Source of the DNA: Alphaproteobacteria bacterium
GTDB taxonomy: Bacteria; Pseudomonadota; Alphaproteobacteria; SP197
Assembly (NCBI GenBank): GCA_965207785.1
Contig: OZ242305.1
Location: 342,133 to 406,132, forward strand
Direction: 5' to 3'
DNA: 64,000 nt
In this document: piece after piece, positions 4,205-62,035 of the stretch
How the letters are laid out: each line of letters begins with the position of its first letter
Position numbering within the stretch: position 1 is the first letter of the stretch
Program-made: the position numbers and the translations under genes
The notes under the pieces: generated by a model
What the model was told of the DNA's origin: nothing
The model's database searches: none
What the model saw: only the letters and a program-made list of their open reading frames with translations

Positions 4205-6076
4205 CTAGCGTTCCCTCAACCGCGACAGGCCGGAGGCGATCCAGCCGGGAGTCCGTTCGCCCGGAAGTGATGGTTCGTCTCCGGCGGGGGCCAGCGTACG
4301 CAGACCGTCTTCGGTGGTTGATCCCAGGCGGGCGGGATTGGCGAGCCACCACACCAGGGGCACTCCGATCATCCAGAAGAATATCTGCCAAACCCAGAGG
4401 GAAGAAAGGCCGAGTGCAGCCGCCTCGTCCGCAAAGATCGGTTCGATGAAGAATGTGTTGCCCAGAATGGCGCCCGGGCCCAACGCGAAGAACGCCCAGA
4501 GCAGCACCAGCGACCATGTCGCGGTTCTTGAGGCCGGCCCGCCGAATGGCACGCGCCACGATGCCCGGAACTCGTTGTGCAGGCGATCGCGAACGTCTCG
4601 TCCGGTGCTGCGTCTGGTGAAGATGGAGACGAGCAGGACTGCGACGACGTTGCACATCAACCCCCAGGCAGCTGAATGGACGGTCAGGGGCCACCGGCCC
4701 CAGGGCAGGTCAAGAAACAGACCCTCGAAAAGCACGAGTCCGGGCGGCTCGGTGAAGATGACGACGAGCCCGCCCAGGACGATGCCGGTCAGAATGGCAC
4801 CGCGGCTGATCCATGGCACGAAGGTGAAACCCAGGATAGCGGGCGTCAGCTGAACCGAGAGAGGCAGCACCGCACTGGCGAGAATTGCTGACGTGAGGGG
4901 TGAAAAGGCGGCCAGAATTGCCACCGAAATGAAGGCGCCGGCCAGCGCAACCCGTGTCGCGAAACGCTCGGCGCGACGGCTGAGTCCCGGAAAGATGTCG
5001 CGAAACAGCAGGTCCCTTGCGAGCAACAGGGTTCCTCCGGTGACGAAGAAGGCTACGGTCAGCTGGGCGATGACGACAAGGCCGAGGACCGCTCCTGCAC
5101 CGGCAAGGACATTCACCCTCGCCAGCATGGTAGCGAGGGTGGCCACGTCGCCGTCCATTCGTGCGGCAAGGAAGGGGACTGCAAGCACCAGGACGGCCCC
5201 GACAAGGCCGGCCATGAGCCAGACGTGCGTCACCGCGAAGGCGCGGCCCGGTCCGGTGGTCATGCCGAGATGGAGGAACATTGGCGACAGCACGACGCCA
5301 ACCAGGGTGAGAGCTGCCGACACGACGCCGACAGTCGTGAAAATGCCGCCGGCCGGCACGTCCTTGCCGATACCTGCTGCATACTGGACGACACCTGGAA
5401 TGCGGTCGGCGAGAATGTCGTCGGCTACCGGGATCGACGTCCGCAGAAATCCCCCGTCCGCGAGTACGCCTTCGCCAAAGAAGACCGCAGTGGCAAGGGC
5501 GACGACGACAATGGCGGACTGCATCCCGGCCACCAGGACGACGGCGCGCCAGCCACCGATGACAGCGGGCAGGAAGAGCATGAAGGCCAGAGTCCAGATG
5601 GCGACCCGGTGCGGTATGGCGCCATCCGTTGCAATGTCGATGATGGCGCCGGCATCGGCCAGTACATGGGCAGCGAAGGGAAGGGCGAAGAGGGCTGTCA
5701 GTCCGGCGACGAAAAGGCGCAGGGCGGTGCTTTGGTAGTACCAACCCATCATCAGACCAGGACTGGCAAGTCCGGCGATCCGTGCTCCCAGCCACAGTCG
5801 CTTGAGGACCAGGACTGCGGTCAGGGCAGCGATGATGATGCCGACGCCAACGTGGTTGGCCTGCAGTCCGTAGCGGTCCACGAGGGCGAGATGGTCCGTC
5901 AGGCCGAATCCGGCGAGCACCACGCCGGACGCTGTGAACGCGAAGGCCCAACCGGGGATGTCGCTGCCACCGTCGATGAATGTTCCGGGTGCTCGGCCGA
6001 TACGCGCCACCATGGCCGCGATGTAGACACCGTAGAGCGCCAGCACGGCGACGGCTGTGGCCATGATTGTCGTCAC
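4205..6076 (-). CDS. sodium:solute symporter (SSS) family-like transporter
   Basis: 623 aa, about 13-14 TM. N-terminal FIDGGSDIPGW and the GGWRAVVLVAGMQ segment resemble SSS signatures. GTG start overlaps the upstream stop (GTGA); alternative ATG at 6064. Confidence 0.6.
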   Translation of the reverse strand: MTTIMATAVAVLALYGVYIAAMVARIGRAPGTFIDGGSDIPGWAFAFTASGVVLAGFGLTDHLALVDRYGLQANHVGVGIIIAALTAVLVLKRLWLGARIAGLASPGLMMGWYYQSTALRLFVAGLTALFALPFAAHVLADAGAIIDIATDGAIPHRVAIWTLAFMLFLPAVIGGWRAVVLVAGMQSAIVVVALATAVFFGEGVLADGGFLRTSIPVADDILADRIPGVVQYAAGIGKDVPAGGIFTTVGVVSAALTLVGVVLSPMFLHLGMTTGPGRAFAVTHVWLMAGLVGAVLVLAVPFLAARMDGDVATLATMLARVNVLAGAGAVLGLVVIAQLTVAFFVTGGTLLLARDLLFRDIFPGLSRRAERFATRVALAGAFISVAILAAFSPLTSAILASAVLPLSVQLTPAILGFTFVPWISRGAILTGIVLGGLVVIFTEPPGLVLFEGLFLDLPWGRWPLTVHSAAWGLMCNVVAVLLVSIFTRRSTGRDVRDRLHNEFRASWRVPFGGPASRTATWSLVLLWAFFALGPGAILGNTFFIEPIFADEAAALGLSSLWVWQIFFWMIGVPLVWWLANPARLGSTTEDGLRTLAPAGDEPSLPGERTPGWIASGLSRLRER

Positions 6077-6534
6077 AAGCGTGCCCGGTTTCGGCGTACC
6101 CGCGACGATGGCCTCGGATTGTTGTCGCGGATGATGTCAAACTTCCGGAACGCAGCGCGCGTGCCGTGGCGTGTCACCATGGTGAGGGCGACTGCGACGA
6201 CGAGGCTCGTCATCCCGGTTGCGATGGTGAGAAAGAAGGATTCATAGAATCCATCTATCAGGACCATCGCGCCAATGAAGGCGTTCAGCGCAGCGAGAAA
6301 CAGGACCATGCCGGCACCTGTTTCTCGCGCCGTGAATCCGGTTCCCAGGGCGGCATTGATGATGATGTGGCCGGCGAACCCGGCGAGGATGACGACAAAG
6401 CCCCCGGCAACCCACCAGGATCCGTCAGCGGCAAACCCGTGATTGAACAACATCGCTGCGACAAGGCCGACGGGCAGCCAGAGGGCCATGACCAGGGCGT
6501 GGCGATCAAGCCGCGCCTGTTGTCCGGACGCCAC
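6073..6534 (-). CDS. small 4-TM membrane protein with a basic C-terminal tail, function unknown
   Basis: 153-aa ORF with four hydrophobic segments, a GTG start 11 nt after the flotillin stop, and a stop overlapping the symporter start. No family recognised. Confidence 0.45.
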   Translation of the reverse strand: MASGQQARLDRHALVMALWLPVGLVAAMLFNHGFAADGSWWVAGGFVVILAGFAGHIIINAALGTGFTARETGAGMVLFLAALNAFIGAMVLIDGFYESFFLTIATGMTSLVVAVALTMVTRHGTRAAFRKFDIIRDNNPRPSSRVRRNRARL

Positions 6535-6545
6535 CGCTCAGAACC

Positions 6546-8744
6546 TCAGGCGTCGTCGCTGTCCGTCTTCTTCGGCGCGGTCTCGGGAAAGTTGCGGAAC
6601 GACATGCCGCCGGCCGATCCCAGGTTCTTGAGCGGAAGCCCGATCTCCTCCATCAGGCCATCGACGAACGCCACCTGCGTCCGGTACTTCATGGCCGAGT
6701 TCACCACCCGGTCCGAAACGTTGTCGGATCCGCCTCCTCCCGGCCCGCCTACGCCTTCCGATGGGCTGTTCAGCCCCGGCAGGCCGTCGACCTGGAGAAT
6801 CTTGATGGACTCGATGTTCTCCATTGGCTTCACGGATTCCCGAATCACTTCAGGCAGCGTCCTGACGAGGTGCTCGTAAATGGCGCTGCGGCGACTCTCG
6901 TCAGTGCGCAAGTTCTCGGCCTCGTTGAGTTTCCTGTGACCTTCAGCGTCCGTCTGGTAGCGCACTTCGGCAGCTTTCGATTCGGCGATTTCGGCCTCGG
7001 CTCTCTTTTCCATGGCGACCTTGTGGCCTTCGGCGTTCCGCACGAGGCGCATGTACTCGCGCTCGACCTTGGCCTCGGCGTCGATGATCTCGATGCGCTT
7101 GTTGCGTGTCGCGATCTCTTCGGCCCGGACAGAGTCGATCCGGGCTTCCGTGGCGGCAAGGTTGCGCCGGGCTTCGGCCTCATTGGTGAGTGCGACGGCT
7201 TCCTCGATCTGCTTGTTGATCACGGCGATCAGGCGTTCCTTGTCGGCTATCTCGATCTGCATGTCCTGTTCGATCTCGAAACGATCGATGAACTTGCGCG
7301 CAGCAATGCGCATTTCCTCGAGCGCCCGGTTGGCAGAAATCGCCGCGTCCTCGGTATTGCGGAGGCTCCCGGTTTCCGCGAGCTTGATGGCCTGCTGCTT
7401 GGCAATGTCGCGTTCCGACACCTCCTGATCGGTCTCGAGGCGCGCCAATTCCACGGCAAGGCGCTTGGAGATCGCCGCGCGCTCCTGTTCGCTCGCGGCC
7501 TGTTCCGATGAGACCCGGACCTCCTTCTCGGCCTCGACCCCGAGGAGTTCGATTTCCCGCTGCTTGGCGATGCGTTCCGCCTCGACTGCCCGTTCCCTGT
7601 CAAGGCGGGCCTTCTCGATCTCTGAGTGGGACTGCGAGTCGAAGACCTCGATTTCCATTTCGGACCTGATGGATGCCTCGCGGACCTGGCGTTCACGCTC
7701 GATCCGTTCAGCCTCGATTTGCTGGCGGCTCTGGATGCGTTCGGTTTCAAGCGTCGAATGGGTTTCGATGTCGATCAGTTCGGTGTCGCGCTGCTTCTCG
7801 ATCTCCTGGGTGCGGATGTGGTTCTGCGAGCGGATGCGTTCGAGTTCAATGGCCTGTTCCTTGGTGATGCGCAGGAGCTCGCTCTCCTTGTCGGCCTTGA
7901 GTCGGGCCTCCACCACGGCGATCTCCGAACTGGAGCGTTCCGCTGCAACCTCGGCGAGCTGCATTGCCTTGCGGTTCTCGATGTCCCGGGCCTGGTCGAT
8001 CCGCGCGATTTCCAGGTCGCGGTCGATCTCGAGTGCGCGCTGCTCCGCCTCGAAGTCCTTCATCTTGATGTCGATGCGCGCCTCGTTTTCGATCCTGTTG
8101 CGTAGCTTGCGTCGATCCTCGACCTGTTCGGTCAATTGTGTGAGGCCTTCGGCGTCAAAGGCATTGGAAGGGTTGAAGATCGCGATGTCCGACTGGTTGA
8201 GGGATGTCAGCGATGCGTTCTCAAGTTCGAGTCCATTGCTCTCGAGGGTGCCTGCAGCAAGTTCCGCGGCCTGGCGGATGTACCCGCCACGATCCTGGTG
8301 GATCTCCTCCATGGTCATGCGGGCGGCGACGGCGGCCATGGCATCGACAAAGCGGCCGTGGATGACTTCCTTGACGGCCATCGCGTCCTGGGTCTTGGCG
8401 CCAAGCGTGCGCGCGGCGGTGGATACCCCCTCCCGTGTCGCGATGACGCGGACAAAAAACTCGGCGACCAGATCGATCCGCATCTTGTTGTTCGTGATCA
8501 GCGACTGTTCGCCGGTGCGCCGGACCTCGACAGGGATGGCGTTCATGTTGACGACGGTGATGTCATGGACGATGGGGATGACGAGCGCGCCGCCCCCCAT
8601 CACGACTTTCTCGCCACCGGCGCCCGTGCGCACGAAGCTCTGGTCCTTCGACGAATGGCGATAGAGCCAGTGCAGCAGATAAACCCCGACGGCGATCAGG
8701 ATCGTCAGCAGGATGATGATTGCGATAGCGTCAGCACCGTTCAT
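6546..8744 (-). CDS. flotillin-like SPFH/band-7 protein (YqiK-like) with a very long coiled coil
   Basis: N-terminal TM helix, SPFH core (FVRTGAGGEKVV...IPVEV...RIDLVAEFFVRV), then about 450 aa of E/R/A/I-rich heptad-like sequence with recurring ERI units. Confidence 0.85.
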   Translation of the reverse strand: MNGADAIAIIILLTILIAVGVYLLHWLYRHSSKDQSFVRTGAGGEKVVMGGGALVIPIVHDITVVNMNAIPVEVRRTGEQSLITNNKMRIDLVAEFFVRVIATREGVSTAARTLGAKTQDAMAVKEVIHGRFVDAMAAVAARMTMEEIHQDRGGYIRQAAELAAGTLESNGLELENASLTSLNQSDIAIFNPSNAFDAEGLTQLTEQVEDRRKLRNRIENEARIDIKMKDFEAEQRALEIDRDLEIARIDQARDIENRKAMQLAEVAAERSSSEIAVVEARLKADKESELLRITKEQAIELERIRSQNHIRTQEIEKQRDTELIDIETHSTLETERIQSRQQIEAERIERERQVREASIRSEMEIEVFDSQSHSEIEKARLDRERAVEAERIAKQREIELLGVEAEKEVRVSSEQAASEQERAAISKRLAVELARLETDQEVSERDIAKQQAIKLAETGSLRNTEDAAISANRALEEMRIAARKFIDRFEIEQDMQIEIADKERLIAVINKQIEEAVALTNEAEARRNLAATEARIDSVRAEEIATRNKRIEIIDAEAKVEREYMRLVRNAEGHKVAMEKRAEAEIAESKAAEVRYQTDAEGHRKLNEAENLRTDESRRSAIYEHLVRTLPEVIRESVKPMENIESIKILQVDGLPGLNSPSEGVGGPGGGGSDNVSDRVVNSAMKYRTQVAFVDGLMEEIGLPLKNLGSAGGMSFRNFPETAPKKTDSDDA

Positions 8745-8797: not shown

Positions 8798-9487
8798 TCA
8801 GAACCGTTCCTGACCTGCGACCGCCAGGATTATGAGCGACGGCGTGATGAGGTTGATCAGGTCAAAGAGCGTGTAGAGTGCTACGATACTCGGCGATTGT
8901 CCCGTTCCGATCACCACATCGACAAAGTGCAGAATGGGATAGATCGCCCAGCCGACAGTCATGATCAGGCGGATCCAGAAGTAACCCAGGCGCACCGCCC
9001 GGCTCTGCCGACGGACGACGTCGGCCAGGGGGCCGAAGTAGAACTCTCCGAGGATGTAGAGCCAGAAGCCGATGGAGAGCAGTACACCCAGAGTCGGATT
9101 GAAGAAGCCTGCGTCGCCCAGGTAGCGCGCGAACACCATCAGCAGCGCGGCGGCTGCCGTGCGCCAGAAAATTCCCACCGGGGGTTTCGCCAAGGCGCGC
9201 ACGAAGAAGTACATGGCCGCGACCTGCAACGGGTGCACCGTGAACCAGGCGGCAAAGCGGATGCCCCCGCTTGACGCTCCTCCTTGCAGCCACAGGGACG
9301 CCGCGCCGGCATAGTGCAGCGCCGACGCCAGGGTGGCGACGGCTACCATTGCCACCGGAATCCGCCACTTTTCGGAGGACCAGCTCAGGCCCGCGAGACA
9401 CAGGACTGCGGTAGAGAAGGTGGCCAGTGCGGCGATGACGAAGCTGCTGGCGACCACGTGCTGCGAGGTGTAGAGAACTCCGAACAT
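8798..9487 (-). CDS. proteorhodopsin-family (Bac_rhodopsin) homolog lacking the Schiff-base lysine
   Basis: 229 aa, 7 TM. By-eye alignment to green proteorhodopsin: EKW..HY (helix B), RFAAWFTVHPL vs RYIDWLLTVPLL (helix C), YLGDAG vs YMGEAG (helix D), GWAIYP identical (helix F), LYTLFDLINLI vs IYNLADFVNKI (helix G). The lysine position is Leu. Confidence 0.8.
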   Translation of the reverse strand: MFGVLYTSQHVVASSFVIAALATFSTAVLCLAGLSWSSEKWRIPVAMVAVATLASALHYAGAASLWLQGGASSGGIRFAAWFTVHPLQVAAMYFFVRALAKPPVGIFWRTAAAALLMVFARYLGDAGFFNPTLGVLLSIGFWLYILGEFYFGPLADVVRRQSRAVRLGYFWIRLIMTVGWAIYPILHFVDVVIGTGQSPSIVALYTLFDLINLITPSLIILAVAGQERF

Positions 9488-9497
9488 GTCCTTCTCC

Positions 9498-10901
9498 CTA
9501 GACTTGTGCCCTGATGTGCGCCGAACGTCCGTAGAGAGCCACCATGGGCAAGATCAGGAGGCCGAAAATGAACTGCTGCCACTCGTACTGAAGTCCGATT
9601 CCGATCAGAAACGAACTCAGCACCTGAAGCACCAGGACACCGATGACCGTGAACCCGTAACCGCCGTAGCCGCCGAGCAACGACGTGCCGCCGATGACGA
9701 CGGCCGCCAAAGTCGTAAAGAGGTAGGGATCGCCGACTCCGATGAAACCGCCTCCTGACCAGCCAAGAAGCAGCGACCCTGTCAGGGCGGCGAACACTCC
9801 GGACAGAACATAGGCGAGGGTCCAGTACTTGAACTCCGAGACGCCGATCAGCCTCGCTGACTGGCGGTTGCCGCCGAGGCCGTAGAGGTGGCGTCCCCAT
9901 GCCGTATGGCGCAGGCCGATGATGATGACCGCGGCGATGACGACCCAGATCAGGATGGTCGGTGGAAAGGCCAGACCGAAGGTCTCGCCATTCATCGCCG
10001 CCAGATTCTGCAGCCACGAGGGAACCGTGCCGAATACGTTGCCACTGAATGCCGTGCCGATGGATGTCAGGATCTGCACGAGTCCGGCGATGCCGAAGCC
10101 GATGCCCAGCGACACGATCAGCGCCTGGCCCTGCAGTCTGAAACTCAGGACCCCGTTCAGCAGGCCGATGAGACCGCCGATCAGAAGGACGAAACCGAAG
10201 GCGACGTAGGACGGCACACCGAGGCTGATCAGAAACAGCAGCCCGATGTTCGCGGCGCCGATCACGAAGGGGATCGAGAGGTCAAGTCCGCCCATGAGGG
10301 CCACCAGCGTCTGACCGACGCAGGCGATGCCGAGGAACGAGGCGAACAGCAGGATGGCCTTCACGTTCGTACCGGAGAGAAACCCGTCGATGGTGAACGA
10401 GGAGATGACGATCAGGGCGGCGAGGACGATCAGCCCGATGAAGGCGCTTCGCCCGTGGGCGAAGCGCCCTGATACCTTGAAGGCGAAGAGAAGGATCGCC
10501 TCCAGAACCAGAAAGGCGATGAGATTGGTCACTGTCCGGAAGGATTCAACCGAAGCGGTGATGATGAGGTAGGCGAGCAGCAGCAGGCCCATGGCGATAA
10601 TCATCACGCGATTTGACTGCCACACGCCCCTTGCGCCGCTGGCCGGCGCCCTGGTCCCGGTACTGCGGGACTCGAACATGACCACGATGTAGTTGAGGAG
10701 CCACAACAGCACCGCAACCGACACGACAGTGGAGACGATGACGTCCTGGGCCGCCAGCCCCTGACCGAATCCGACCCCGAAGCCGATGGCGGCCACGATC
10801 AGTGCCGCCGCCAGGTTGATCCAGATCATGAACGCCGACCGCGGCATGGGTATAAGCTGCATCCTTGAATCGCGCTCGGCGGGAGGCCGTTCCTCAGTCA
10901 T
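9498..10901 (-). CDS. sugar-type ABC transporter permease (BPD_transp_2, RbsC/AraH-like) with an N-terminal 2-TM extension
   Basis: 467 aa. Canonical permease core from about residue 95, preceded by about 92 extra residues. ATGA overlap with the upstream permease. Confidence 0.8.
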   Translation of the reverse strand: MTEERPPAERDSRMQLIPMPRSAFMIWINLAAALIVAAIGFGVGFGQGLAAQDVIVSTVVSVAVLLWLLNYIVVMFESRSTGTRAPASGARGVWQSNRVMIIAMGLLLLAYLIITASVESFRTVTNLIAFLVLEAILLFAFKVSGRFAHGRSAFIGLIVLAALIVISSFTIDGFLSGTNVKAILLFASFLGIACVGQTLVALMGGLDLSIPFVIGAANIGLLFLISLGVPSYVAFGFVLLIGGLIGLLNGVLSFRLQGQALIVSLGIGFGIAGLVQILTSIGTAFSGNVFGTVPSWLQNLAAMNGETFGLAFPPTILIWVVIAAVIIIGLRHTAWGRHLYGLGGNRQSARLIGVSEFKYWTLAYVLSGVFAALTGSLLLGWSGGGFIGVGDPYLFTTLAAVVIGGTSLLGGYGGYGFTVIGVLVLQVLSSFLIGIGLQYEWQQFIFGLLILPMVALYGRSAHIRAQV

Positions 10902-12265
10902 GGCGACATTCCTCCGAACACGGTCATGTCACCCTGGACCATCACCAGCGCGAACAGCGCGATCACGAGAACCGCAAGCAGGACGTAGGTGAAGAGACCG
11001 AGCTTTTGCCGGCGGGCCTCGGCGCTCATCAGCCGCACCGCCAGCGTCACTGCGGCCGCGGCGACGACGATGCCAAACGCGATTCTCTGGAGAAGCGAAA
11101 ACCGCGGCACTGTCGCCTCGGCACCCGCGGGCGCGACCAGGAGGTAGCGTGTCGCAAGGTCGGCGTTTTCCGCTGCGGCGGGGCCTTCCGCCGGCAGGTA
11201 GGAGCCGGAGGTTGCCACATGCAGCAGGATGCCGGCGACGACGGTGCCGAGAACCAGAAACGCGCTCCAAGGCGATATGAACGCGATGTGCCGGGCAACG
11301 ATCGGGACCAGGAGAGTCAACAGCAGGGACAGAACCAGGATGATCCCGTAGCTCATCTGCGTGACGAATGCCTGGATGGCACCGAAGTTGAGCGTCGCGA
11401 GGACGTAACCGATCAGGTAGAGGTTCAGTGCACCGAGAAGGGCGCCCGTGACACCGCCTCGGCCGCCGGCCAGGCTGACACCGCCGAGCACGAGCGCAGT
11501 GACAGCCGTCAGGGTCATGGTCGTACCCTGAGTCGGATCCCCTGAGGCGATGAGAGCGGTGTAACAAATGGCGCCCAGTCCGACGAACAGACCGGCGATG
11601 ACGTGGGCGCCGATGCGCACGACGTAGATGCGCACCCCGCTGGTCCAGGCCGCCCGCTCGTCGTACCCCATCATCCTCAGGTTGCTGTAGAACCGCGTCA
11701 GTATGAAGAGCAGCCAGCCGACGGTGGCGATCACGACGATCAGAAGGACCGGCGAGAAGATCGTGGTGCCACGGCCCCAGCTTGCCATCCATTCCGGTGC
11801 CAGACCGCCGGGGCGTGGGAGGATGACCAGGTTGATGCCCGATAGCGCCAGGAATCCGGACAGCGCGACGATAATCGGCTGAACCCGGACCCAGATCACC
11901 ACGAGAGCAAAGAACAGCTGATAGAGAACGCCCAGCCCGAGTGCCACCAGGAAGACGCCGAACGGGCCGGTGACCAGATCCAGCATGTTCAGCTTGACGA
12001 TCGTCACGTTGATGAAGGCAAGTAACGGGCCGACGGCAAGGTCGATGGTGCCGCGGCCGGCGATGGCAAGTGACATCAGCGCGTAGGTCGCCAGAGTCAG
12101 CGGAGCGGCGACGATGATGGCGCTGCCGATTCCCGACATCGAGACGAGATGCGGACCGCGGATGGCAGCTGTCGACAGCAGCACCATGATGAGCGCGATC
12201 GGCACCAGGAGATAGGTGTTCGTCGTCGAGGTGCGTTCTGACATCCCGGTCAGGCCCGCAGCCAT
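10898..12265 (-). CDS. sugar-type ABC transporter permease (BPD_transp_2) with a C-terminal 3-TM extension
   Basis: 455 aa. Canonical core ends near residue 325 and is followed by about 130 extra residues with three hydrophobic helices. Confidence 0.8.
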   Translation of the reverse strand: MAAGLTGMSERTSTTNTYLLVPIALIMVLLSTAAIRGPHLVSMSGIGSAIIVAAPLTLATYALMSLAIAGRGTIDLAVGPLLAFINVTIVKLNMLDLVTGPFGVFLVALGLGVLYQLFFALVVIWVRVQPIIVALSGFLALSGINLVILPRPGGLAPEWMASWGRGTTIFSPVLLIVVIATVGWLLFILTRFYSNLRMMGYDERAAWTSGVRIYVVRIGAHVIAGLFVGLGAICYTALIASGDPTQGTTMTLTAVTALVLGGVSLAGGRGGVTGALLGALNLYLIGYVLATLNFGAIQAFVTQMSYGIILVLSLLLTLLVPIVARHIAFISPWSAFLVLGTVVAGILLHVATSGSYLPAEGPAAAENADLATRYLLVAPAGAEATVPRFSLLQRIAFGIVVAAAAVTLAVRLMSAEARRQKLGLFTYVLLAVLVIALFALVMVQGDMTVFGGMSP

Positions 12266-12292: not shown

Positions 12293-13231
12293 TCAAAGTT
12301 CGATCACGCGGCGCGGATCCGCTTTCGGGGACTGCTGCGGCCTGGCAGCCGGTCCGGACAGCGAACGGCCTTCCCCGCGTCGCTGCGGATCGTTCTGCAG
12401 GATCTTCTTGAGGACCGGCGCCACGACATTCTTGAACTTTTCCGGATCTTCGGAGGTCGGGAAGTGCCCGCCGGAAAAGATGATGCACTCGCAACCCTTG
12501 ACTTTCTCCGCCGTGCGCTCGGTCATTTCGGGCGTACAGGCGAAGTCGTAGTCGCCGGTCAGGAAGTAGAGGGGCAGTCGCCCCGAAATCCTGTGCACCT
12601 TGTCGCGGTAGTCGCTGTCGACGGAGTAGTAGTAGAGGTCCCCCTTGAAGATGCCCGGTCCGCCCTGTGCATAGTACCACCAGGTTTCCCAGCGGTACTG
12701 GTCCGGACTCTCCGGCGACATCAGGCCGAACACCGATGTCGCCACGGCCTCGCCTCCATGTACGTGCGGGTGATGCAGTGGGTCGATCCACCATCCCGGC
12801 GAGTGGTCGCAGGCTTCCAGTGCGATCAGCGCCGAAAACTCGTTCTCGTAGTTGAGGGCGAGTTCAAGGCAGATGTTGCCGCCCATCGACTGGCCCATGA
12901 TGACCGGCTTGTCCAGATCGAGGGCGCGGCAGAAGGCGACAATGAACTCTGCGTAGAACCGCGACGTCAGCTTGTATTCATCCTCCATCAGGTAGAAGTC
13001 CTCGGGAGGAATCGATTTTCCATGCCAGGGCAGGTCGAATGCGATCATGCGGAAATTCGACGAGAAGTCCGGCTCGCAAAGCTGATGGCGATACTGACGG
13101 CAGTCGGTGCCGGCGGTGTGCAGGCAGACCATGGGAATGCCCTCGCCCGTTTCCTCGTAGTATGTCCTGTAGGTCTTTCCCTCGCAGGTCACGTAAACGT
13201 AGCGTCCGATGATGGGATCATGCGGGTTCAT
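12293..13231 (-). CDS. alpha/beta-fold hydrolase
   Basis: Nucleophile elbow GQSMGG, LHTAGTD oxyanion region, C-terminal GGHFP histidine. Start at MNPHDP (ATG 13231), preceded by GGAGAG. Confidence 0.8.
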   Translation of the reverse strand: MNPHDPIIGRYVYVTCEGKTYRTYYEETGEGIPMVCLHTAGTDCRQYRHQLCEPDFSSNFRMIAFDLPWHGKSIPPEDFYLMEDEYKLTSRFYAEFIVAFCRALDLDKPVIMGQSMGGNICLELALNYENEFSALIALEACDHSPGWWIDPLHHPHVHGGEAVATSVFGLMSPESPDQYRWETWWYYAQGGPGIFKGDLYYYSVDSDYRDKVHRISGRLPLYFLTGDYDFACTPEMTERTAEKVKGCECIIFSGGHFPTSEDPEKFKNVVAPVLKKILQNDPQRRGEGRSLSGPAARPQQSPKADPRRVIEL

Positions 13232-13245
13232 CGTTGTTCTCTCCG

Positions 13246-13650
13246 TCAGATTTCGCGCATCAGTGCGAGCATGCGGGTCAGTGCCCTCACGTTTTGCCAG
13301 AACGACAACTGATTGCCGTCGATCACCAGCTGCTTGTGCAGCGGATGCGCCATGGCCCAGATGTCGTTGAACATGGGCGGGGGCACGGGTTGGCTGAACT
13401 TTTCCCATGCGCTCGAGGGCGCGCGCAGGGCAAACTCGAAACCGAAGTCGTTCGGAGTCAGGCCCTCCGAAATACGGACGATCTTGCCCTTCTGGACCTC
13501 GAACAGGAATTCGGTGTCGTCAAAGGCGATCAGGAACCGGTGATTGAAGAACCTGCCGATGGTCGGCAGGATCCTGTCTTCATTGACGCGACGCGCCCAG
13601 CGCTCGACCCATTCAAGGTCGAAACTGGCTCTGCGGCCATATCTGCTCAT
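13246..13650 (-). CDS. small SCP2-like (sterol/lipid carrier fold) protein, tentative
   Basis: 134 aa from MSRYGRR (ATG 13650, GGAGGA upstream). The pattern FLIAFDDTEFLFEVQKGKIV...FEFALRAPSSAW...LVIDGNQLSFWQNVRAL resembles SCP2/UbiT-like domains. Family assignment is by eye only. Confidence 0.45.
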   Translation of the reverse strand: MSRYGRRASFDLEWVERWARRVNEDRILPTIGRFFNHRFLIAFDDTEFLFEVQKGKIVRISEGLTPNDFGFEFALRAPSSAWEKFSQPVPPPMFNDIWAMAHPLHKQLVIDGNQLSFWQNVRALTRMLALMREI

Positions 13651-13687
13651 GAGGTCCTCCTGTCGGTTCAACAGTAACGTGCATGCG

Positions 13688-15853
13688 TCATGCGGCGGGT
13701 AACGGAGTGCGGGCGGGTCCGTAGACCGCGGTGAACGAGGCCTGGTCGATCGCGACCGGCAGGACCGCCGCACCGAAAGCGGCGAGGTCCGCGTCCGCCG
13801 CAACGCCAATTCTGGGCACCTTGAGTGCGTATAGCGTGAAGACATAGCGATGCTGGCTGTCTGGAGGCCACGGACCGCCCCAGCCGCGGCCGAAGCCTGG
13901 TATGCCGAAGGTCACGAAGTCGGAATTGAGTTCCAGGGCGGCGTCCGGAAGCGTCTGGCCGCTGGCTCCTTCCGGCAGTTCGCGAACGTCTCCTGGAATG
14001 TTGCAGACCAGCCAGTGAGCGAAACTGCGTGGAAAGTTGAAGGCTTCCGGCACGTCCGGGTCGGTGACCGACAGCGCGAAACTTCGCGTGCCGTCTGGTA
14101 CGCCGGACCAGGAGAGGGCCGGCGATTTGGTGCTTGATTCACAGAACCGGTCCGGCACCACCGAGCCCTGGGGAATGTCCGGGGCGCCGAAGAGAAAGCC
14201 TGACTGGTTCATCTTGTCCTCCAAGACGGTTGAAGACACCAATGGCACCGGTCGGCCGCCTGGCCGCCCATCCGACGGAAACGGCGCTGTTGCCGGTTGT
14301 CGCCCGAGTCGGTCGGCGTCATGACCGCCTGCCGACAGGACCGCGCCGCTGCGCCGGCCGAACATGGCGTTGAGAATATCGTGACCGTCGAGCGGCGGCG
14401 AGAACTCCGCTGAGATGGCGCCGTTGCGGAACACGTGCACCCGGGTGCAGAGATCGAGGAATTCCTCGATTTCGGACGACAGAAACACGACCGCGTTGCC
14501 GCGCGCCGCGAAGGCCCTGAGATTGTGATAGAGGTCGCGTTTGGCACCGACGTCGATGCCGCGGGCGGGATCGTTCAGGACCAGGACCGAAGGCTTTTCC
14601 GCAAAGGCGCGGGCGATCAGGACCTTTTGCTGATTGCCGCCCGAGAGGGATGTGACAAGATCGTCAGATGAACCCATCCGCACATCGAGTCGCCCGGACT
14701 CCCACTCGAAGACGGGGCGGAGTTTTGTCCGGTTGATCAGGTTGAGCCAGCCGCCGGTCCGATACTCCCGGTAGACCGGAAGCAAGAGGTTCTCGAAGAT
14801 GCTGAGATTGGCGAAGATTCCTTCCTTCGCGCGGTCGCCGGAGACATAGCTGATGCCGTTCTCCCGAGCCGAGCGGAGATCGTCGACCGGGACTGCCGTC
14901 TTGTTGCGGACGATGGCGATGCGGCCCTCCACCATCGCCTGGACTCCCGCGATGGCGCGGACGAAGTCAGCGTGTCCGTGCCCGTCGAGTCCTGTGATGC
15001 CGACGATCTCGCCGGGATGAATTGTGAAGTCGAAAGAACCGGCGCCGGCCCACACCCGCGCTCCGAGAACGCGCAGGAGAGGATGATCCGACATGCGGGA
15101 GACCGGATCCTGAGATGCGCACTCCCCGTGTCGGCCCTTGCCGGCGATCATGTCCACGATCCGGGCTTCGCTGATGTCCTGACTTGCCAGGGTGCCGATC
15201 GAACGCCCGTCGCGAAGCACGGTGGCGCTGTCGGCAATGCGCACCAGTTCGGCGATGCGATGGGTGACGATCATGATTGTGCAACCCGCGGCCTTCATCC
15301 GGCGCATCTTGCTGAACAGCCGTTCCGTGGAGTCGAAGTCGAGGGCTGCCGACGATTCGTCGAGGATCAGGACCTTGGGGTCGGTCAAAATCGCGCGGGC
15401 GATGGTGACCCATTGCTTGATCGACAAGGGGAGTTCGACGACGGCAAGGTCAAGGTCGAGTTCGAATCCGAGAAGCTCCATCATCAGTTCGCCGGCTGCG
15501 CGGTAACGCTCCTCCCTGGCAACCGGAGTGCCGAGCAGACTGTCGGCGCCAAGATAGAGGTTGTCGAGAACCGAGCACTCGTCGGCGACCAGAACTTCCT
15601 GAAAGACGTTTGAAATGCCCAGTTCCCGGGCTTCGTAGGGAGAGCTTGCGGACTTGCCGAGAATCGAGACGTGGCCGCTGTCGGGGATCAGCACCCCGGA
15701 GATCACCTTCGCAAGCGTGCTCTTGCCGGATCCGTTGCCGCCAATGATCGCGTGAATCTCGCCCGCCGACGCGCGCAGCGACACACCGTCGAGGGCAACC
15801 GTCGGGCCGAAGGCCTTGCTGACGTCGGAAATCTCGACGGTGGCAACGGCCAT
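13688..15853 (-). CDS. tandem-NBD sugar ABC ATPase (RbsA/MglA-like) fused in frame to a C-terminal PEBP/YbhB-YbcL domain
   Basis: Walker A GGNGSGKST, LSGGNQQK signature, and a second degenerate NBD. About 50 aa of low-complexity linker follow, then a 174-aa PEBP-like domain (TDPDVPE...HWLVCNIP...GPWPPDSQHRYVFTLYAL). Confidence 0.8.
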   Translation of the reverse strand: MAVATVEISDVSKAFGPTVALDGVSLRASAGEIHAIIGGNGSGKSTLAKVISGVLIPDSGHVSILGKSASSPYEARELGISNVFQEVLVADECSVLDNLYLGADSLLGTPVAREERYRAAGELMMELLGFELDLDLAVVELPLSIKQWVTIARAILTDPKVLILDESSAALDFDSTERLFSKMRRMKAAGCTIMIVTHRIAELVRIADSATVLRDGRSIGTLASQDISEARIVDMIAGKGRHGECASQDPVSRMSDHPLLRVLGARVWAGAGSFDFTIHPGEIVGITGLDGHGHADFVRAIAGVQAMVEGRIAIVRNKTAVPVDDLRSARENGISYVSGDRAKEGIFANLSIFENLLLPVYREYRTGGWLNLINRTKLRPVFEWESGRLDVRMGSSDDLVTSLSGGNQQKVLIARAFAEKPSVLVLNDPARGIDVGAKRDLYHNLRAFAARGNAVVFLSSEIEEFLDLCTRVHVFRNGAISAEFSPPLDGHDILNAMFGRRSGAVLSAGGHDADRLGRQPATAPFPSDGRPGGRPVPLVSSTVLEDKMNQSGFLFGAPDIPQGSVVPDRFCESSTKSPALSWSGVPDGTRSFALSVTDPDVPEAFNFPRSFAHWLVCNIPGDVRELPEGASGQTLPDAALELNSDFVTFGIPGFGRGWGGPWPPDSQHRYVFTLYALKVPRIGVAADADLAAFGAAVLPVAIDQASFTAVYGPARTPLPAA

Positions 15854-15956: not shown

Positions 15957-17153
15957 CTATTGTGCGGCCGGATGCGAGGCCGGGTCATACATCTCGGGAT
16001 CGGCCGGACGCAGGAAGAAGTTGTCCAGATACTCCTTGCCCGCCCAGGCCTCGACGCCGACATGGTACCAGTCCGCCGAGTTTTCATCGCAGTCCTCGGG
16101 GATGGCCGCGAGCATCTGATCCCTGTCCATCGAGAAGGGCTTGGCAAGGATCGACTCAACCTTGGGGCCCTGTCCCTGGAGTGTGCGCATCATGATGTTC
16201 CAGGACATCTCGAAATCGTCGCCGGGAGGCCATGCATGGATGGCGCCCGACACGTAGTCCGGGTTGTTGCGCCAGTAGCAAAGCGCGCCGAGCTCGCTGC
16301 CGATGGTGACGGGCACCATGTCTCGGCCCGACTGCTTCAGGGCGCGCAGCGCGCCGAGTTCAGATGCCGACTGAATGACGATGCCATCCAGTTGGCCGGG
16401 ATTGGTCGCCATCCACTTCTGGATTTCGGCCTGGGCCACCTGGTCTGTCCACATGCCGGCGATCTGGCCGACGATCTCGATGTCCGGGTAATCGGCGAGC
16501 GCTGCCTCGATGCCCACATTCTGGCTGTCTGAGGCCGAGGTGCCCGGGATTCCCTCCACGTTCAGGATGTTGCCCGCGCCGCCGAGTTCGTTGGCCATCC
16601 ATTCGCCCATCATGCGTCCACCGACGACGAAGTTGGCCGACGAGTTCACCGAATAGGGGCTCGTCAGGTAACCGACCGCCGAGAACGTGGGTACGCCGCG
16701 TTCGTAGGCATAAGCCACGGTCTGGTTGAGCGCCGTGGGATTCGAGCAGCAGATGATCAGCGCATCGACGCCCTGGTCGACGAGCTGGCGCATTTGCTGG
16801 ATCTGGACCGAATCGTTGAGGTTCGACTGCGTGATGATGACCTCCGAGATAAGGCCGAGCTCGGTCCATTTCGGAATGATCTCGTTCTGCAACCGGTTCA
16901 TGACTGCGGCGCGCCAGGTGTTGCCGGCATAGCTGGAGGCATAACCGATCTTCCATGGCGGCGGGTTGGCGGCGATGAAGTCGCGATAGGGGCTGTCGCC
17001 CACTGGCTGGACCGGATCCAAGTACGCCGGATCGTAGAGGTCGTTGCGGATGTCTTCCGGCAGTTCTTCGACCCCGGCCGACACCGGCGCTGTGATCATG
17101 GCCGACACGCAAACGGCGAGTGCCGGCAAGAAGGCAATTGCGCAGCGTTTCAT
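15957..17153 (-). CDS. periplasmic sugar-binding protein of an ABC transporter (Peripla_BP-like)
   Basis: Signal peptide MKRCAIAFLPALAVCVSAMITAPVSAG. ATG 17153 is preceded by GGGAGGA. Type I periplasmic binding-fold pattern. Confidence 0.8.
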   Translation of the reverse strand: MKRCAIAFLPALAVCVSAMITAPVSAGVEELPEDIRNDLYDPAYLDPVQPVGDSPYRDFIAANPPPWKIGYASSYAGNTWRAAVMNRLQNEIIPKWTELGLISEVIITQSNLNDSVQIQQMRQLVDQGVDALIICCSNPTALNQTVAYAYERGVPTFSAVGYLTSPYSVNSSANFVVGGRMMGEWMANELGGAGNILNVEGIPGTSASDSQNVGIEAALADYPDIEIVGQIAGMWTDQVAQAEIQKWMATNPGQLDGIVIQSASELGALRALKQSGRDMVPVTIGSELGALCYWRNNPDYVSGAIHAWPPGDDFEMSWNIMMRTLQGQGPKVESILAKPFSMDRDQMLAAIPEDCDENSADWYHVGVEAWAGKEYLDNFFLRPADPEMYDPASHPAAQ

Positions 17154-17505
17154 GGGTCCTCCCTTCACTGCATTGTTTCAAGTGACCGACATGGTCGTTG
17201 ACGCTTCAGCGCAACCTCGCCGCCGGTCCGGGCGGCAAATCTACACCATGTCCACAATTCAGGAACAGCCCAAAGTGACACCCCCGCGCGCAGTTTGGGC
17301 CGGGCGAATCGCCGCATCACCGCGTGGCCTCGACAACGCGCCAGGCACCGGGTCATGAGCTTCGGCGTTCCATCCGTCGACGTCGGTATCCGGGCATGGT
17401 GCCGAGTGTTCCTTCAAGCCGGCGGACAACGCCGCGATGCCGAGACTTCCCTTCGGGTCGGGGTGGCGGCAAAGTCGTTGCTGACAAGTCAGTCCGGAGA
17501 TCTTC

Positions 17506-18045
17506 ATGACGGTGTCGTCCACATTCCGCCTTTCGCCCCTCGACCCGGGTGCATGGGATCCTGTCCTGCGGGATGTGCGGCGCCGGATCGGGCAGCCACT
17601 CAACATCCATGGGGTGATAGCTCGCCATCCGGACCTCATGGCGGCGTATGCCCCCTTGCGCGAACACGTGGTGAGGGGTTCCTCGCTCGAGGCGGGGCAC
17701 CGGGAACTCGTGATTCTGCGCGTCGCCCACCGCACCGAGTGTGACTACGAATGGCGCCACCATGTGGAGCGCGGCCGCAGGGCCGGCCTTGACGATGAGC
17801 GGATTGGTCGCGTGAGGCAAGGAAGTGAAGCCCCCGGCTGGTCGCCGGAAGAATCACTTCTGCTGCGCGCGGTGGACGAGATGCTCGATGAGAATGAACT
17901 CAGGCCAGAAACCCTTGATGCAATGGGCAGCGCATTTGGCGATAGGCAGATTCTCGACTTCGTGTTTGTCGTTGGCGTCTACGTCATCATGTCGACGTTG
18001 CTGAAATCCGCGCGCGTGCCGCTTGAGGACGAATTCACGGACTGA
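17506..18045 (+). CDS. carboxymuconolactone decarboxylase (CMD/AhpD-like) family protein
   Basis: RELVILRVAHRTECDYEWRHH motif region typical of CMD domains. Confidence 0.8.
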   Translation: MTVSSTFRLSPLDPGAWDPVLRDVRRRIGQPLNIHGVIARHPDLMAAYAPLREHVVRGSSLEAGHRELVILRVAHRTECDYEWRHHVERGRRAGLDDERIGRVRQGSEAPGWSPEESLLLRAVDEMLDENELRPETLDAMGSAFGDRQILDFVFVVGVYVIMSTLLKSARVPLEDEFTD

Positions 18046-18159
18046 CCGGGGAGGGACTCTCCTTGCCATTGGACCTTTCGCCGTTGCGAGTCGCCGGTTC
18101 CCCGGCAACAGCAGAACGCACTGTGGTCACAGGCCAATGAGGGTCTGCAGGAGGATGAC

Positions 18160-19164
18160 ATGAGAGATGCAGGATCCCCCTACCTGCTGTTTCTGGGTGA
18201 CGCCCGGGACGAGTTGTCGATCAAGGGGGCGACCGGAGTCAAGATCTGGCGCCCCGACAAGGCGAGGGCACAGATCCGCCTTGCGGGCTGCAACCAGGAT
18301 CTCGGATTGCCCGACTTGACGGTCCGCGAGGCCGCGGATGCAGGATGCCGGACGATGCTGGTGGGTGTCGCCAATGCCGGAGGGTTCATTCCCGATCACT
18401 GGAGCGCCACGATCATCGAGGCTCTCGAGGCAGGACTTGACGTCATGGCCGGCATGCACACGCGCCTTGCGGACATTCCGGCCATTGCCGAAGCCGCGCG
18501 ACGCCACGGACGAACTCTCCATGATGTGCGCCAGAGCACCAGGGAGTTCTCCGTCGGCAAGGGAACTCCGCGCAGCGGCAGACGGCTTCTCACCGTCGGC
18601 ACGGACAGTTCCCTGGGCAAGATGTTCACCTCCCTTGCCATCGAACGCGAGATGCATTCCCGGGGCATGAAGGCGACCTTCAGGGCGACCGGTCAGTCCG
18701 GAATCTTCATCGCCGGGAGCGGTATCGCCGTCGACGGGGTGATCGCCGATTTCATTTCCGGGGCGGTGGAGTGGCTCGCTCCGGCCAATGATCCCGATCA
18801 CTGGGATATCATCGAGGGTCAGGGGTCGCTCTTCCACCCATCCTTTGCCGGGGTGAGCCTCGGTCTTCTTCACGGTGCCCAGGCGGAAGCGCTCGTCATG
18901 TGTCACGAGCCCACGCGCTCCCACATGCGCGGTCTTCCGGGACGATCCCTTCCGTCACTTGGGCACTGCATCGAGGCCAATGAACGGATGGCCGGCCTGA
19001 CCGCGCCCGGCGCCCGCGTCGTCGCCATCTCCGTCAACACCTCCGCGCTCGGAGAGGAAGAGGCGCTTCGCGAGATCCAGGCGACGGCCGCCGAACACGG
19101 TCTGCCGTGCGGCGATCCGGTGCGTCATGGCGCCTCGTTTATCGTTGATGTTCTGGTGCCATGA
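18160..19164 (+). CDS. dgcN: DUF1611 family protein, DgcN-like N-acetyltransferase
   Basis: 334 aa with PYLLFLGD...WRP N-terminus and GTDSSLGKM P-loop-like segment. ATGA overlap with the downstream epimerase, the typical pairing for this family. Confidence 0.7.
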   Translation: MRDAGSPYLLFLGDARDELSIKGATGVKIWRPDKARAQIRLAGCNQDLGLPDLTVREAADAGCRTMLVGVANAGGFIPDHWSATIIEALEAGLDVMAGMHTRLADIPAIAEAARRHGRTLHDVRQSTREFSVGKGTPRSGRRLLTVGTDSSLGKMFTSLAIEREMHSRGMKATFRATGQSGIFIAGSGIAVDGVIADFISGAVEWLAPANDPDHWDIIEGQGSLFHPSFAGVSLGLLHGAQAEALVMCHEPTRSHMRGLPGRSLPSLGHCIEANERMAGLTAPGARVVAISVNTSALGEEEALREIQATAAEHGLPCGDPVRHGASFIVDVLVP

Positions 19165-20192
19165 CAGGCCCTCGCCATCGGCGGACCGTCAACGCACGCC
19201 CCGAGACCTGGCCACTGGCCCGGCCGTTCAGGATTGCGCGGGGGTCGAAGAACGAAGCTCGCGTCATCATCGTCGAGATCGCGCAGGAGGGTATGACGGG
19301 CAGGGGCGAATGTGTTCCCTACGCGCGCTACGGCGAAACCCGGGAATCGGTGCTCGCGGACATCGCCCGTCTGGCGGGGGCGGTCGAGGGGGGCGCCGGT
19401 CGGCACGATCTCTACGGAGCGGGGGCGGCCCGCAATGGGATCGACTGCGCCCTGTGGGATCTTGAGGCGCGTCTCGACGGCCGAACGGTCTGGCAGCACG
19501 CCGGCCTCAGCGAACCTTCCTCTCTTGTCACCGCCTGGACCATTGGCATCGATTCTCCTCAAGCCATGTTGAGGGCCGCGGCCAACAACCGGACGCGCCC
19601 GCTCCTCAAGGTCAAGCTCGATGGCGAGTGCATCATGGAAAGGATGCATGCCGTCCGCGAAGGCGCCCCCGAGGCGCGTCTGGTGATTGACGCCAACGAG
19701 GCCTGGACCATGGATCAGCTCCTCCGCGTCGCGGATGATCTCGCAGACCTCGGTGTCGAGATGATCGAGCAGCCCCTGCCTTCAGGCGAGGATGAGGTGC
19801 TGGCCGGTTACAGGTGTCCGCTTGTCCTGTGCGCAGACGAGTCCTGCCACACCGCAGACGATGTCGACCGTCTCCTAGGCCGATACGACATGGTGAACAT
19901 CAAGCTCGACAAGGCGGGTGGCCTGACCGGCGCCCTGGCACTGCGCCGGGCGGCTCGCAAGCGCGGGCTTCGTGTCATGGTGGGCTGCATGGTGAGCACG
20001 TCGCTGGCCATGGCGCCGGCGATGCTGGTTGCCGAGGATGCCGACATCGTCGACCTTGACGGCCCGTTGATGCTGCACGTCGACCGTGAAGGCGGGATTC
20101 GCTACGATGGAAGCGTCATGCATCCCCCTCACGGCTCCCTGTGGGGAGGAGGCGAGTTCGCCGGGCAGGGGACGCCCGCCGCGGCCCGGTAA
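19161..20192 (+). CDS. dgcA: enolase-superfamily dipeptide epimerase-like enzyme, DgcA-like N-acetyl-D-Glu racemase
   Basis: KVKLDG, IEQPLP, CADES and NIKLDKAGGLT metal/catalytic motifs of the MR/MLE family. Confidence 0.7.
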   Translation: MTGPRHRRTVNARPETWPLARPFRIARGSKNEARVIIVEIAQEGMTGRGECVPYARYGETRESVLADIARLAGAVEGGAGRHDLYGAGAARNGIDCALWDLEARLDGRTVWQHAGLSEPSSLVTAWTIGIDSPQAMLRAAANNRTRPLLKVKLDGECIMERMHAVREGAPEARLVIDANEAWTMDQLLRVADDLADLGVEMIEQPLPSGEDEVLAGYRCPLVLCADESCHTADDVDRLLGRYDMVNIKLDKAGGLTGALALRRAARKRGLRVMVGCMVSTSLAMAPAMLVAEDADIVDLDGPLMLHVDREGGIRYDGSVMHPPHGSLWGGGEFAGQGTPAAAR

Positions 20193-20208
20193 CCGGGGGA
20201 GAGGATTC

Positions 20209-26851: not shown

Positions 26852-26923
26852 GCACCCTCCACAGGTCATGACGGAAGTGCGCTGTTGCATGACCGGTCCA
26901 GGACCCGAGGGGAGGAAGTGACG

Positions 26924-29630: not shown

Positions 29631-29723
29631 GGCATCGTCGATCCTGTTGTGGGGTGTCATGGTTTGCCTCGTCACGGCGGTGGATGCAAGATGGGTCCCT
29701 GATCCCTGCATTCTGGTCCTGGA

Positions 29724-59992: not shown

Positions 59993-60061
59993 GGCGTCCT
60001 CCCGTCCGGCACAATTCATGATGCATCGCCGGGAGAACTTCGTCAAACGACAATGCGCCAC

Positions 60062-62033: not shown

Positions 62034-62035
62034 TC

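Follow-up and report, generated by a model that had tools for sequence, protein, structure and literature searches.

The 64,000-nucleotide stretch of alphaproteobacterial DNA analysed here (the window) encodes a seven-helix protein of the proteorhodopsin family that lacks the Schiff-base lysine. This protein is a lysine-less FArhodopsin (FAR), a published kind of rhodopsin-like protein rather than a new class, and its gene is the seventh in a ten-gene operon, where it stands between two ATP-binding cassette (ABC) permease genes and a flotillin gene. The reading that we prefer, with rather more confidence than doubt, is that FAR is a retinal-free, light-independent membrane partner of a flotillin scaffold around the operon's transporters. 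The gene and the positions that bear on its identity, numbered also according to proteorhodopsin (PR) and to PsFAR, the FArhodopsin of Pseudothioglobus, are the following.

8798..9487, minus strand: FAR, lysine-less, 229 aa, 'L-type' of the R121 clade (Pfam, PDB sequence match, AlphaFold2/Foldseek).
8849..8851, minus strand: L213 codon, CTC, at the Schiff-base lysine position (PR K231, PsFAR K213; HMMER alignment).
9125..9127, minus strand: R121 codon, CGC, aligned with PsFAR E120 (β-ionone site of the retinal pocket).
9233..9235, minus strand: H85 codon, CAC, aligned with PsFAR H84 (polyene-chain space).
9215..9250, minus strand: helix-C triad A80, V84 and A91, aligned with PR D97, T101 and E108.
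9488..9500, minus strand: stop codon of the upstream permease gene and a Shine-Dalgarno-like sequence, GGGAGAAGGA, read directly.

An earlier note, made from the sequence alone, had described a 229-residue protein of the PR family. This is borne out by the open reading frame (ORF), by a significant match to the Pfam family Bac_rhodopsin (PF01036; E=1.1e-7, 32 bits against a cut-off of 24.6, residues 14–222), and by both sequence and fold matches in the PDB. In phmmer searches of that database the top match was PsFAR (9r21) at E=1.7e-31, while proteorhodopsins scored ∼1e-18; the corresponding bit scores were 113 for PsFAR and 70 for the best PR. The AlphaFold2 model, derived from an alignment of 81 homologues, displays seven helices (predicted local distance difference test score, pLDDT, 85.5). 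Foldseek placed 9r21_A first (template modelling (TM) score 0.88, probability 1.0) and PR structures next (TM 0.8–0.9), with xanthorhodopsin 3ddl at rank 24 and 21% identity. The Pfam comparison and the structure prediction, both of which the note had proposed as checks, thus agree with its family assignment, and the motifs that it had picked out by eye (KW..HY, RxxxW....PL, YLGDAG, GWAIYP and YxLxD) are all present.

HMMER alignments set L213 opposite the lysine of PsFAR and of the Med12 blue proteorhodopsin (BPR) (DLINL versus DFLNK and DLINK, respectively). The only lysines in FAR are K40 and K101, and helix G contains none. Similarly, A80, V84 and A91 lie opposite PR D97, T101 and E108, and the proton acceptor and donor carboxylates are gone. 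The note had identified both replacements correctly, and its conclusion stands: as lysine and triad are both replaced, it is certain that this seven-helix PR-family protein can neither form a retinal Schiff base nor work as a canonical proton pump. It was mistaken about the codon, however, as the CTG triplet that it placed at the Schiff-base position encodes L210. Because three base changes separate CTC from either lysine codon (AAA or AAG), a sequencing error at L213 is implausible. Among the residues retained are R77 (PR R94), D209 (PR D227) and the pocket aromatics W81, W180 and Y205. The 10-nt gap between the stop codon of the second permease gene and the ATG of FAR contains an AAGGA-type ribosome-binding site.

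FArhodopsins are PR-family paralogues that always lie beside flotillin, and in most of those from fresh water the lysine has given way to Q, T, L or R (Haro-Moreno et al. 2023, mSystems, PMC10308929). FAR resembles these freshwater proteins in being a seven-transmembrane member of the PR family, in the replacement of the helix-G lysine and in having flotillin directly downstream on the same strand. PsFAR binds no retinal although its lysine is kept; the polyene channel is taken up by H84 and the ionone site by E120, two residues that mutagenesis showed to exclude retinal, while S54 is FAR-specific, the pocket consists of fragmented water-filled cavities and the protein is a pentamer, as in PR (Kovalev et al. 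2025, 10.1101/2025.04.29.651185). In the FARs of HIMB59 a Trp located elsewhere occupies the β-ionone site (10.1101/2025.04.29.651185). H85, R121 and S55 of FAR align with H84, E120 and S54 of PsFAR, respectively, the last of these being Ala in PRs. The assignment as a FArhodopsin follows from the flotillin gene next door, from PsFAR as the best match and from the presence of H85, R121 and S55 at the PsFAR pocket positions. Homology with PsFAR makes it very likely that FAR is without any chromophore. The statement in the earlier note that lysine-less rhodopsins are a recognised but functionally unexplained class is upheld, but the flotillin neighbour, the match to PsFAR and the transporter operon had been missed.

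The two proteins, which are 29% identical, share His at the H84 position, Ser at S54, a long side chain at position 120, a short N-terminus without a signal peptide and a flotillin neighbour. They differ in that PsFAR retains K213 and D79, where FAR has L213 and A80, and in the presence of Glu rather than an invariant Arg at position 120. FAR, moreover, keeps His at the position of PR H75, which is Phe in PsFAR, and its chain, unlike that of PsFAR, terminates directly behind helix G in a conserved AG-x-E/D-R-Y/F tail. Marine FARs have DTT, DTL or DNI in helix C, whereas in FAR the Asp has been lost too. With green and blue PRs (7b03, 4jq6 and 4kly) FAR has in common the fold, the RxxxW, WLYI-GE and GWAIYP motifs and the equivalents of D227 and N230; K231, D97, T101 and E108 of PRs are all absent, and the pocket would instead contain His and Arg. 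Natural loss of the Schiff-base lysine is also a feature of Rh-noK from marine betaproteobacteria. Rh-noK, however, is related to xanthorhodopsin and encoded in tandem with a functional rhodopsin, whereas FAR is related to PRs and FARs, has no rhodopsin neighbour and has a pocket that appears to be blocked. As cited in the passages of the FAR literature that mention them, Rh-noK proteins pump again once the lysine is restored.

Conservation was assessed by scanning one genome per species, which yielded 52 L-type loci, and by searching a protein database, which yielded 383 relatives. Residue counts refer to 171 aligned L-type homologues, and those for the sister clade to the best 80 of 186 stretches. 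The lysine position is Leu in 169 of the 171 sequences, encoded by CTC (37), CTG (9), CTT (1) or TTG (1). R121 is invariant both in the L-type set (171/171) and in the sister-clade loci (80/80), and R77, W81, D209 and N212 are likewise invariant in the aligned L-type set. The H85 position is occupied by His (129) or Gln (36), and that of S55 by Ser (113) or Thr (53), while the helix-C triad is A118/G45 at D97, V161 at T101 and A149/S20 at E108. Across more than 160 distinct sequences 43 residues are invariant, with R121, D125, E148 and D209 as invariant charged residues inside the helical bundle, and the length is almost always exactly 229 aa. Comparison with six orthologues gave dN/dS values of 0.06–0.19. 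These data show that the FAR gene is under strong purifying selection and is not decaying; the low dN/dS, the fixed length, the 43 invariant residues and the synonymous changes of the Leu213 codon argue that it is no relic. One homologue, in a metagenome-assembled genome (MAG) from long reads (L048:10001–10686), is split over two frames from about residue 166, and is either a pseudogene or the product of an assembly indel.

The phylogeny proposed in the earlier note was run as a simple neighbour-joining tree. It grouped L-type proteins with their K-, Q- and R-type relatives at 100% bootstrap, but separated all FARs from PRs at only 30%, and it gave no decision on a sister-group relationship of the R121 clade with the marine FARs. 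Pairwise identities are 29% for FAR and PsFAR, 27% for FAR and BPR, and 43% for PsFAR and BPR. As the identities are nearly equal and the bootstrap value is 30%, membership among the FARs is argued chiefly from the gene cluster held in common and from the residues specific to FARs. A homologue in a Rhodospirillales MAG (L047:9402–10109), 42% identical and located in the same operon, keeps the Asp, Thr and Lys (RYIDW..T and DLINK) and also has the pocket arginine (ARYLGD). Because this protein combines the equivalents of D97, T101 and K231 with R121, the arginine was probably acquired before the lysine was lost, to judge from these sequences.

All genes of the operon, from 17168 to 4205, are on the minus strand, with gaps of 10–103 nt and two 4-nt overlaps. 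In order of transcription, the genes surrounding FAR are as follows, where SAR11 refers to proteins of the SAR11 FAR cluster.

15957..17168, minus strand: gene 1, periplasmic substrate-binding protein (Peripla_BP_4), sugar/polyol type (Pfam; 49% identity to SAR11 cds21, E=2e-135).
13688..15853, minus strand: gene 2, CUT2-type ABC ATPase with two nucleotide-binding domains and a fused C-terminal PEBP/YbhB domain (Pfam ABC_tran twice and PBP, residues 567–711; 51% to SAR11 cds20).
13246..13650, minus strand: gene 3, small SCP2-like protein, ∼134 aa (tblastn with the SAR11 SCP2 protein, 30%, E=4e-20).
12293..13234, minus strand: gene 4, α/β-fold hydrolase with a GQSMG nucleophile motif (Pfam Abhydrolase_1; 44% to the SAR11 hydrolase).
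10898..12265, minus strand: gene 5, ABC permease 1 (BPD_transp_2) with a C-terminal extension, overlapping permease 2 by 4 nt (Pfam; 54% to SAR11 cds18).
9498..10901, minus strand: gene 6, ABC permease 2 (BPD_transp_2) with an N-terminal extension of ∼150 aa (Pfam, NCBIfam; 60% to SAR11 cds17).
6546..8744, minus strand: gene 8, flotillin, 732 aa, SPFH/Band_7 and Flot with an N-terminal membrane anchor (Pfam Flot, 4.3e-31; 40% to the SAR11 flotillin, E=1e-80).
6073..6534, minus strand: gene 9, small multi-pass membrane protein, 153 aa, the end of its gene overlapping the start of the next by 4 nt (ORF).
4205..6076, minus strand: gene 10, the last, divergent sodium/solute-symporter-like membrane protein, 623 aa (25% to the SAR11 symporter, E=2e-22).

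The SAR11 FAR-cluster proteins (Table S2 of Haro-Moreno et al. 2023) match nine of the ten operon genes at 25–60% identity, FAR itself at 32%. The marine cluster thus shares with the operon the binding protein, the ATPase, both permeases, the SCP2 protein, the α/β hydrolase and the sodium/solute symporter. Previously published lysine-less contigs are short, unclassifiable pieces of freshwater metagenomes, while the window derives from an alphaproteobacterium of 64% G+C and contains a compact ten-gene operon on a single strand. The ATPase of the window also differs from the marine arrangement in its PEBP domain. In 35 of 38 related loci the two parts are fused in frame; by length only, the domain appears to be missing from the ATPases of SAR11 (581 aa) and of plasmid-borne clusters (∼609 aa). 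The nearest PDB entries to the binding protein are the CUT2 binding proteins 4rs3 and 5hko, and enol-lactonases and esterases are weak matches to the hydrolase. For two genes the longest ORF was over-extended: homology to SAR11 sets the start of the hydrolase at M59 (13234; ORF 12293–13408) and that of the SCP2-like protein at about 13650 (ORF 13246–13845). By themselves the SCP2-like and the symporter-like proteins matched nothing in Pfam, NCBIfam or the PDB, both being assigned only through their SAR11 counterparts. The 153-aa membrane protein had no sequence match in Pfam, NCBIfam or the PDB, NfeD included.

Synteny across the 52 loci is extensive. Flotillin is retained in 51, the 153-aa protein in 48 and the symporter-like protein in 44; the nine operon genes first tested hold their order in 40–51 loci, and the SCP2-like gene, in a separate search, was found in 42. 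The genes that flank the operon are common only to L002, one of the closest relatives. A scan for sigma-70 promoters of the operon found no site and the terminator-like matches were weak and intragenic, so the boundaries of the operon rest on gene spacing and synteny. The idea of a genomic island received no compositional signal, the G+C content being flat at 62–65%, yet the flanks differ even in the closest relative.

The proposed role of FAR follows from this arrangement. FAR would retain the PR fold without retinal, and would neither sense light nor pump protons. It would be made from one transcript with the two ABC permeases upstream and flotillin downstream, probably assembling into an oligomeric ring like the PsFAR pentamer, and would serve, without any need for light, as the membrane-integral partner of the flotillin (SPFH) scaffold or as its client. 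We infer that the two proteins would jointly arrange or gate both transporters of the operon, the CUT2-type ABC importer as well as the symporter-like protein, within a membrane microdomain. Several observations favour such a partnership. FAR and flotillin, whose gene starts only 53 nt downstream of FAR on the same strand, form the part of the cluster that is most constant, in marine and non-marine bacteria alike, and across loci the two proteins diverge at nearly equal rates (62% and 62% identity in the comparison with Mesorhizobium). The C-terminal tail of L-type proteins is conserved (A224, R228 and Y/F229). Type-1 rhodopsins have an N-out/C-in topology that would make this tail cytoplasmic, and the body of bacterial flotillin is likewise cytoplasmic, such that the tail would face the side on which the flotillin body lies. 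SPFH proteins, furthermore, are known to assemble into cages that are attached to the membrane and contain client membrane proteins (PMC11260169). Pairs of SPFH cage and client such as HflK/C-FtsH provide an analogy, in which the gene for a scaffold accompanies that for an oligomeric partner embedded in the membrane, although FAR is homologous to neither FtsH nor NfeD and the FAR-flotillin pair is known from genes, the complex being predicted. As the pair is encoded between an ABC importer and a symporter-like protein, the whole may be a transport unit built on a scaffold.

A number of points weigh against this proposal. PsFAR displays no obvious adaptation for binding flotillin (Kovalev et al. 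2025, 10.1101/2025.04.29.651185), and the contact between FAR and flotillin is a prediction. The placement of R121 and H85 in the pocket depends on alignment at 29% identity. The view of the source genome extends over 64 kb, and a PR or a retinal pathway could lie elsewhere. In SAR11 some 15 kb separate the ABC transporter genes from the FAR-flotillin pair, which is encoded on the opposite strand, so that the tie to transport may be weaker than the operon suggests. Finally, as to the substrate of the operon's transporters, the sugar/polyol CUT2 type and the lactonase-like similarity of the hydrolase provide no more than hints.

Among the alternatives, the one that survives best, although we consider it unlikely, is that FAR is a light-independent lipid handler, a scramblase or lipid-binding module that remodels a lipid microdomain with the SCP2-like protein, PEBP, the hydrolase and flotillin. 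The three lipid-named domains of the operon (SCP2-like, PEBP and flotillin), the retinal-independent scramblase activity of a proteorhodopsin (PMC10730872) and the presence of a retinal-free proteoopsin with bound decanoate (8cnk) among the top Foldseek matches are all consistent with such a role. PEBP and SCP2, however, appear here as names of domain families, and the operon contains no lipid-synthesis or lipid-transfer enzyme of assigned function. The reported scrambling is that of a proteorhodopsin, and the ABC system is of the sugar/polyol (CUT2) type.

A partnership with PR rather than with the transporters has been proposed for marine FARs, which are viewed as accessory subunits of a canonical PR encoded elsewhere, hetero-oligomers in flotillin rafts tuning the activity or spectrum of the pump (Haro-Moreno et al. 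2023, PMC10308929). Every FAR carrier among marine single-cell genomes also has PR (PMC10308929), and the pentamers of FAR and PR are of the same kind. For the FAR described here this model seems a little less probable again than lipid handling. A Pfam scan of the ∼45 ORFs in the window and tblastn searches with FAR and PR detected no second rhodopsin, blh or crt gene, in agreement with the earlier note, which had reported neither a canonical rhodopsin nor a retinal or carotenoid synthesis gene. Two candidates for carotenoid genes were rejected, as the window has no crtB, crtE or crtY: the Amino_oxidase-family gene at 25568–27055 and a weak Lycopene_cycl match, which reflects the FAD motif of a GMC oxidoreductase. 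In none of the 52 loci is another rhodopsin encoded within 10 kb. A FAR of 74% identity is encoded on the 4.6-Mb replicon of Shinella sp. PSBB067, where the FAR locus was the sole match to a FAR query and to a PR query alike; in other records this PR query did detect xanthorhodopsin-like genes, which attests to its sensitivity. This check for co-occurrence covered the one 4.6-Mb replicon plus plasmids, and the cluster is carried on plasmids without PR. Rhizobia and Paracoccus haematequi are among the hosts. The absence of PR near FARs argues against the role of a PR helper on the evidence of the window, the 52 loci and the Shinella replicon, which is not genome-wide for the organism of the window.

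It is also conceivable, but somewhat more doubtful still, that FAR acts as a chemosensor or gate, in which the old retinal pocket or another site binds a substrate or metabolite and regulates the ABC importer or the symporter in the manner of ligand-gated seven-transmembrane receptors. The four invariant intrabundle charges listed above would be compatible with ligand binding, the gene directly follows two permease genes, and the sister R-type FARs described below are embedded among lactone-to-succinate catabolic genes. By contrast, the pocket of PsFAR consists only of fragmented cavities filled with water, the cluster encodes no transducer or signalling domain, and flotillin, not the permeases, is the closest and most constant neighbour. 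That FAR is still a photoreceptor, with retinal, a carotenoid or another pigment bound non-covalently, was left open by Haro-Moreno et al. 2023 (PMC10308929) and would fit the rhodopsin architecture, in which R77, D209, W81, W180 and Y205 are kept. It is nevertheless very improbable, given the missing lysine, the predicted location of His85 and Arg121 on the polyene and ionone sites, the failure of the lysine-bearing PsFAR to bind retinal, the lack of pigment-synthesis genes nearby and the soil and root hosts. The view that FAR is a decaying, functionless remnant of PR, to which the loss of every residue needed for pumping might point, is refuted by the selection and conservation data, including an operon position kept in dozens of species and a Leu213 held through synonymous codons.

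The partnership of FAR with flotillin can also be considered in the light of the hosts. The L-type operon is carried by type strains of several named Mesorhizobium species and by Paracoccus haematequi, Cypionkella and Pseudotabrizicola, and annotated homologues with 64–78% identity to FAR occur in Roseovarius indicus, R. salis, Shinella, Microbaculum marinum and Pseudohoeflea; the closest loci (L001–L003) are from alphaproteobacterial MAGs. PutA of the window matched assorted Alpha- and Gammaproteobacteria at no more than 62% identity, and so placed the host no more closely than as an alphaproteobacterium. In contrast to published lysine-less FARs, the relatives of the window protein are thus found in cultured soil, root and marine bacteria with large genomes, and sister clusters on plasmids. 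All FAR producers have been described as uncultivated aquatic microbes (Kovalev et al., 10.1101/2025.04.29.651185), a description that does not hold for the lysine-less L-type branch. In the literature library searched, no paper linked rhodopsin, lysine loss, Rhizobiales and flotillin.

Relatives of the sister types are encoded in 186 stretches, the best 80 of which include Ensifer adhaerens, Rhizobium sp. LjRoot30, Ciceribacter selenitireducens, Gellertiella hungarica, Hoeflea alexandrii, Roseiarcus fermentans and Tistlia consotensis. In these 80 the lysine position is R (69), Q (6), L (4) or E (1), and flotillin follows in 78. R-type FARs, in which Lys is replaced by Arg, are 38–40% identical to FAR and belong to the same transporter-FAR-flotillin cluster (L054–L056 and L138–L217), which is located on plasmids in Pararhizobium gei (p2, conjugative; L054, 1–16000), Hoeflea sp. 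IMCC20628 (L055) and Martelella sp. AD-3 (L056). The full R-type loci (n=59) embed an AttM-type lactonase (54), an Fe-alcohol dehydrogenase (48), an IclR regulator (36) and a succinate-semialdehyde dehydrogenase (31). This enzyme set resembles the blc/attKLM γ-butyrolactone pathway of Agrobacterium, and from gene content the R-type clusters look like a blc/attKLM-like route from γ-butyrolactone to succinate. The SAR11 cluster, too, has such a lactonase, at 62% identity. The L-type operon of the window is without the lactonase, dehydrogenase and IclR genes of R-type clusters. Two MAGs each contain both an L-type and a Q-type cluster (L037/L217 in MFD10097.bin.1.22 and L033/L212 in Hypericibacter sp. 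MAG H1-B2 bin.14), which are either paralogous modules in one cell or a binning artefact.

These distributions lead us to propose, tentatively and with confidence a little short of even, that a FAR-flotillin module unrelated to light or PR is the core of a horizontally mobile, partly plasmid-borne unit for microdomain transport and catabolism, widespread in non-phototrophic Alphaproteobacteria of soil, roots and sediment. In such a scheme the insertion of R121 would be the defining event, the lysine would have been lost later to L, R, Q or E, and the R-type would have been wired to enzymes that convert γ-lactones to succinate. FArhodopsins are abundant in ocean bacteria, and the two papers devoted to them (PMC10308929; 10.1101/2025.04.29.651185) assume a streamlined, uncultivated aquatic host, a co-resident PR and a link to dim light. 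The lysine-less branch, by contrast, belongs to a fixed ten-gene transporter-flotillin operon of ordinary high-GC Alphaproteobacteria, and the question thereby becomes one of membrane organisation and transport rather than of photobiology. If the proposal is correct, cultured and genetically tractable hosts make the function of a retinal-less rhodopsin directly testable. The bare lysine-less PR-like gene, including a Leu variant (2023), and the lack of retinal binding in a marine member (2025) were already in the literature; the compact conserved operon, the cultured non-phototrophic hosts, the plasmid carriage of the sister type and the invariant pocket arginine are added here.

Several further features of the window were observed outside the operon. 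Divergent from it, at 17506–20192 on the plus strand, are genes of the carboxymuconolactone-decarboxylase family, the DUF1611 P-loop family and the enolase superfamily (MR_MLE). The first two are shared only with L002 and the third with none, which places all three outside the conserved cluster. Between a gene of the muconate-lactonizing-enzyme family and putA is a gene for an ArdC-like protein (20086–21426, plus strand) with ArdcN and zincin metallopeptidase domains, a combination typical of conjugative elements; no further mobile-element gene was seen in the window. A tRNA-Leu(GAG) gene is located at 246–332 on the plus strand, ∼4 kb past the end of the operon, and a search of the 64 kb against Rfam matched no RNA family. 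Four ORFs without a Pfam match have gene-like third-position G+C (27683–28381, 33357–34013 and 59729–60061, all on the minus strand, and 60267–62198 on the plus strand); the last of these, which lies antisense to the 3′ part of topA, is possibly spurious. An Fe-containing alcohol dehydrogenase is encoded 11 kb from the operon (28461–30245, minus strand) and carries an unexplained N-terminal extension of ∼216 aa; its dehydrogenase part is 30–33% identical to the Fe-alcohol dehydrogenases of the SAR11 and plasmid FAR clusters.

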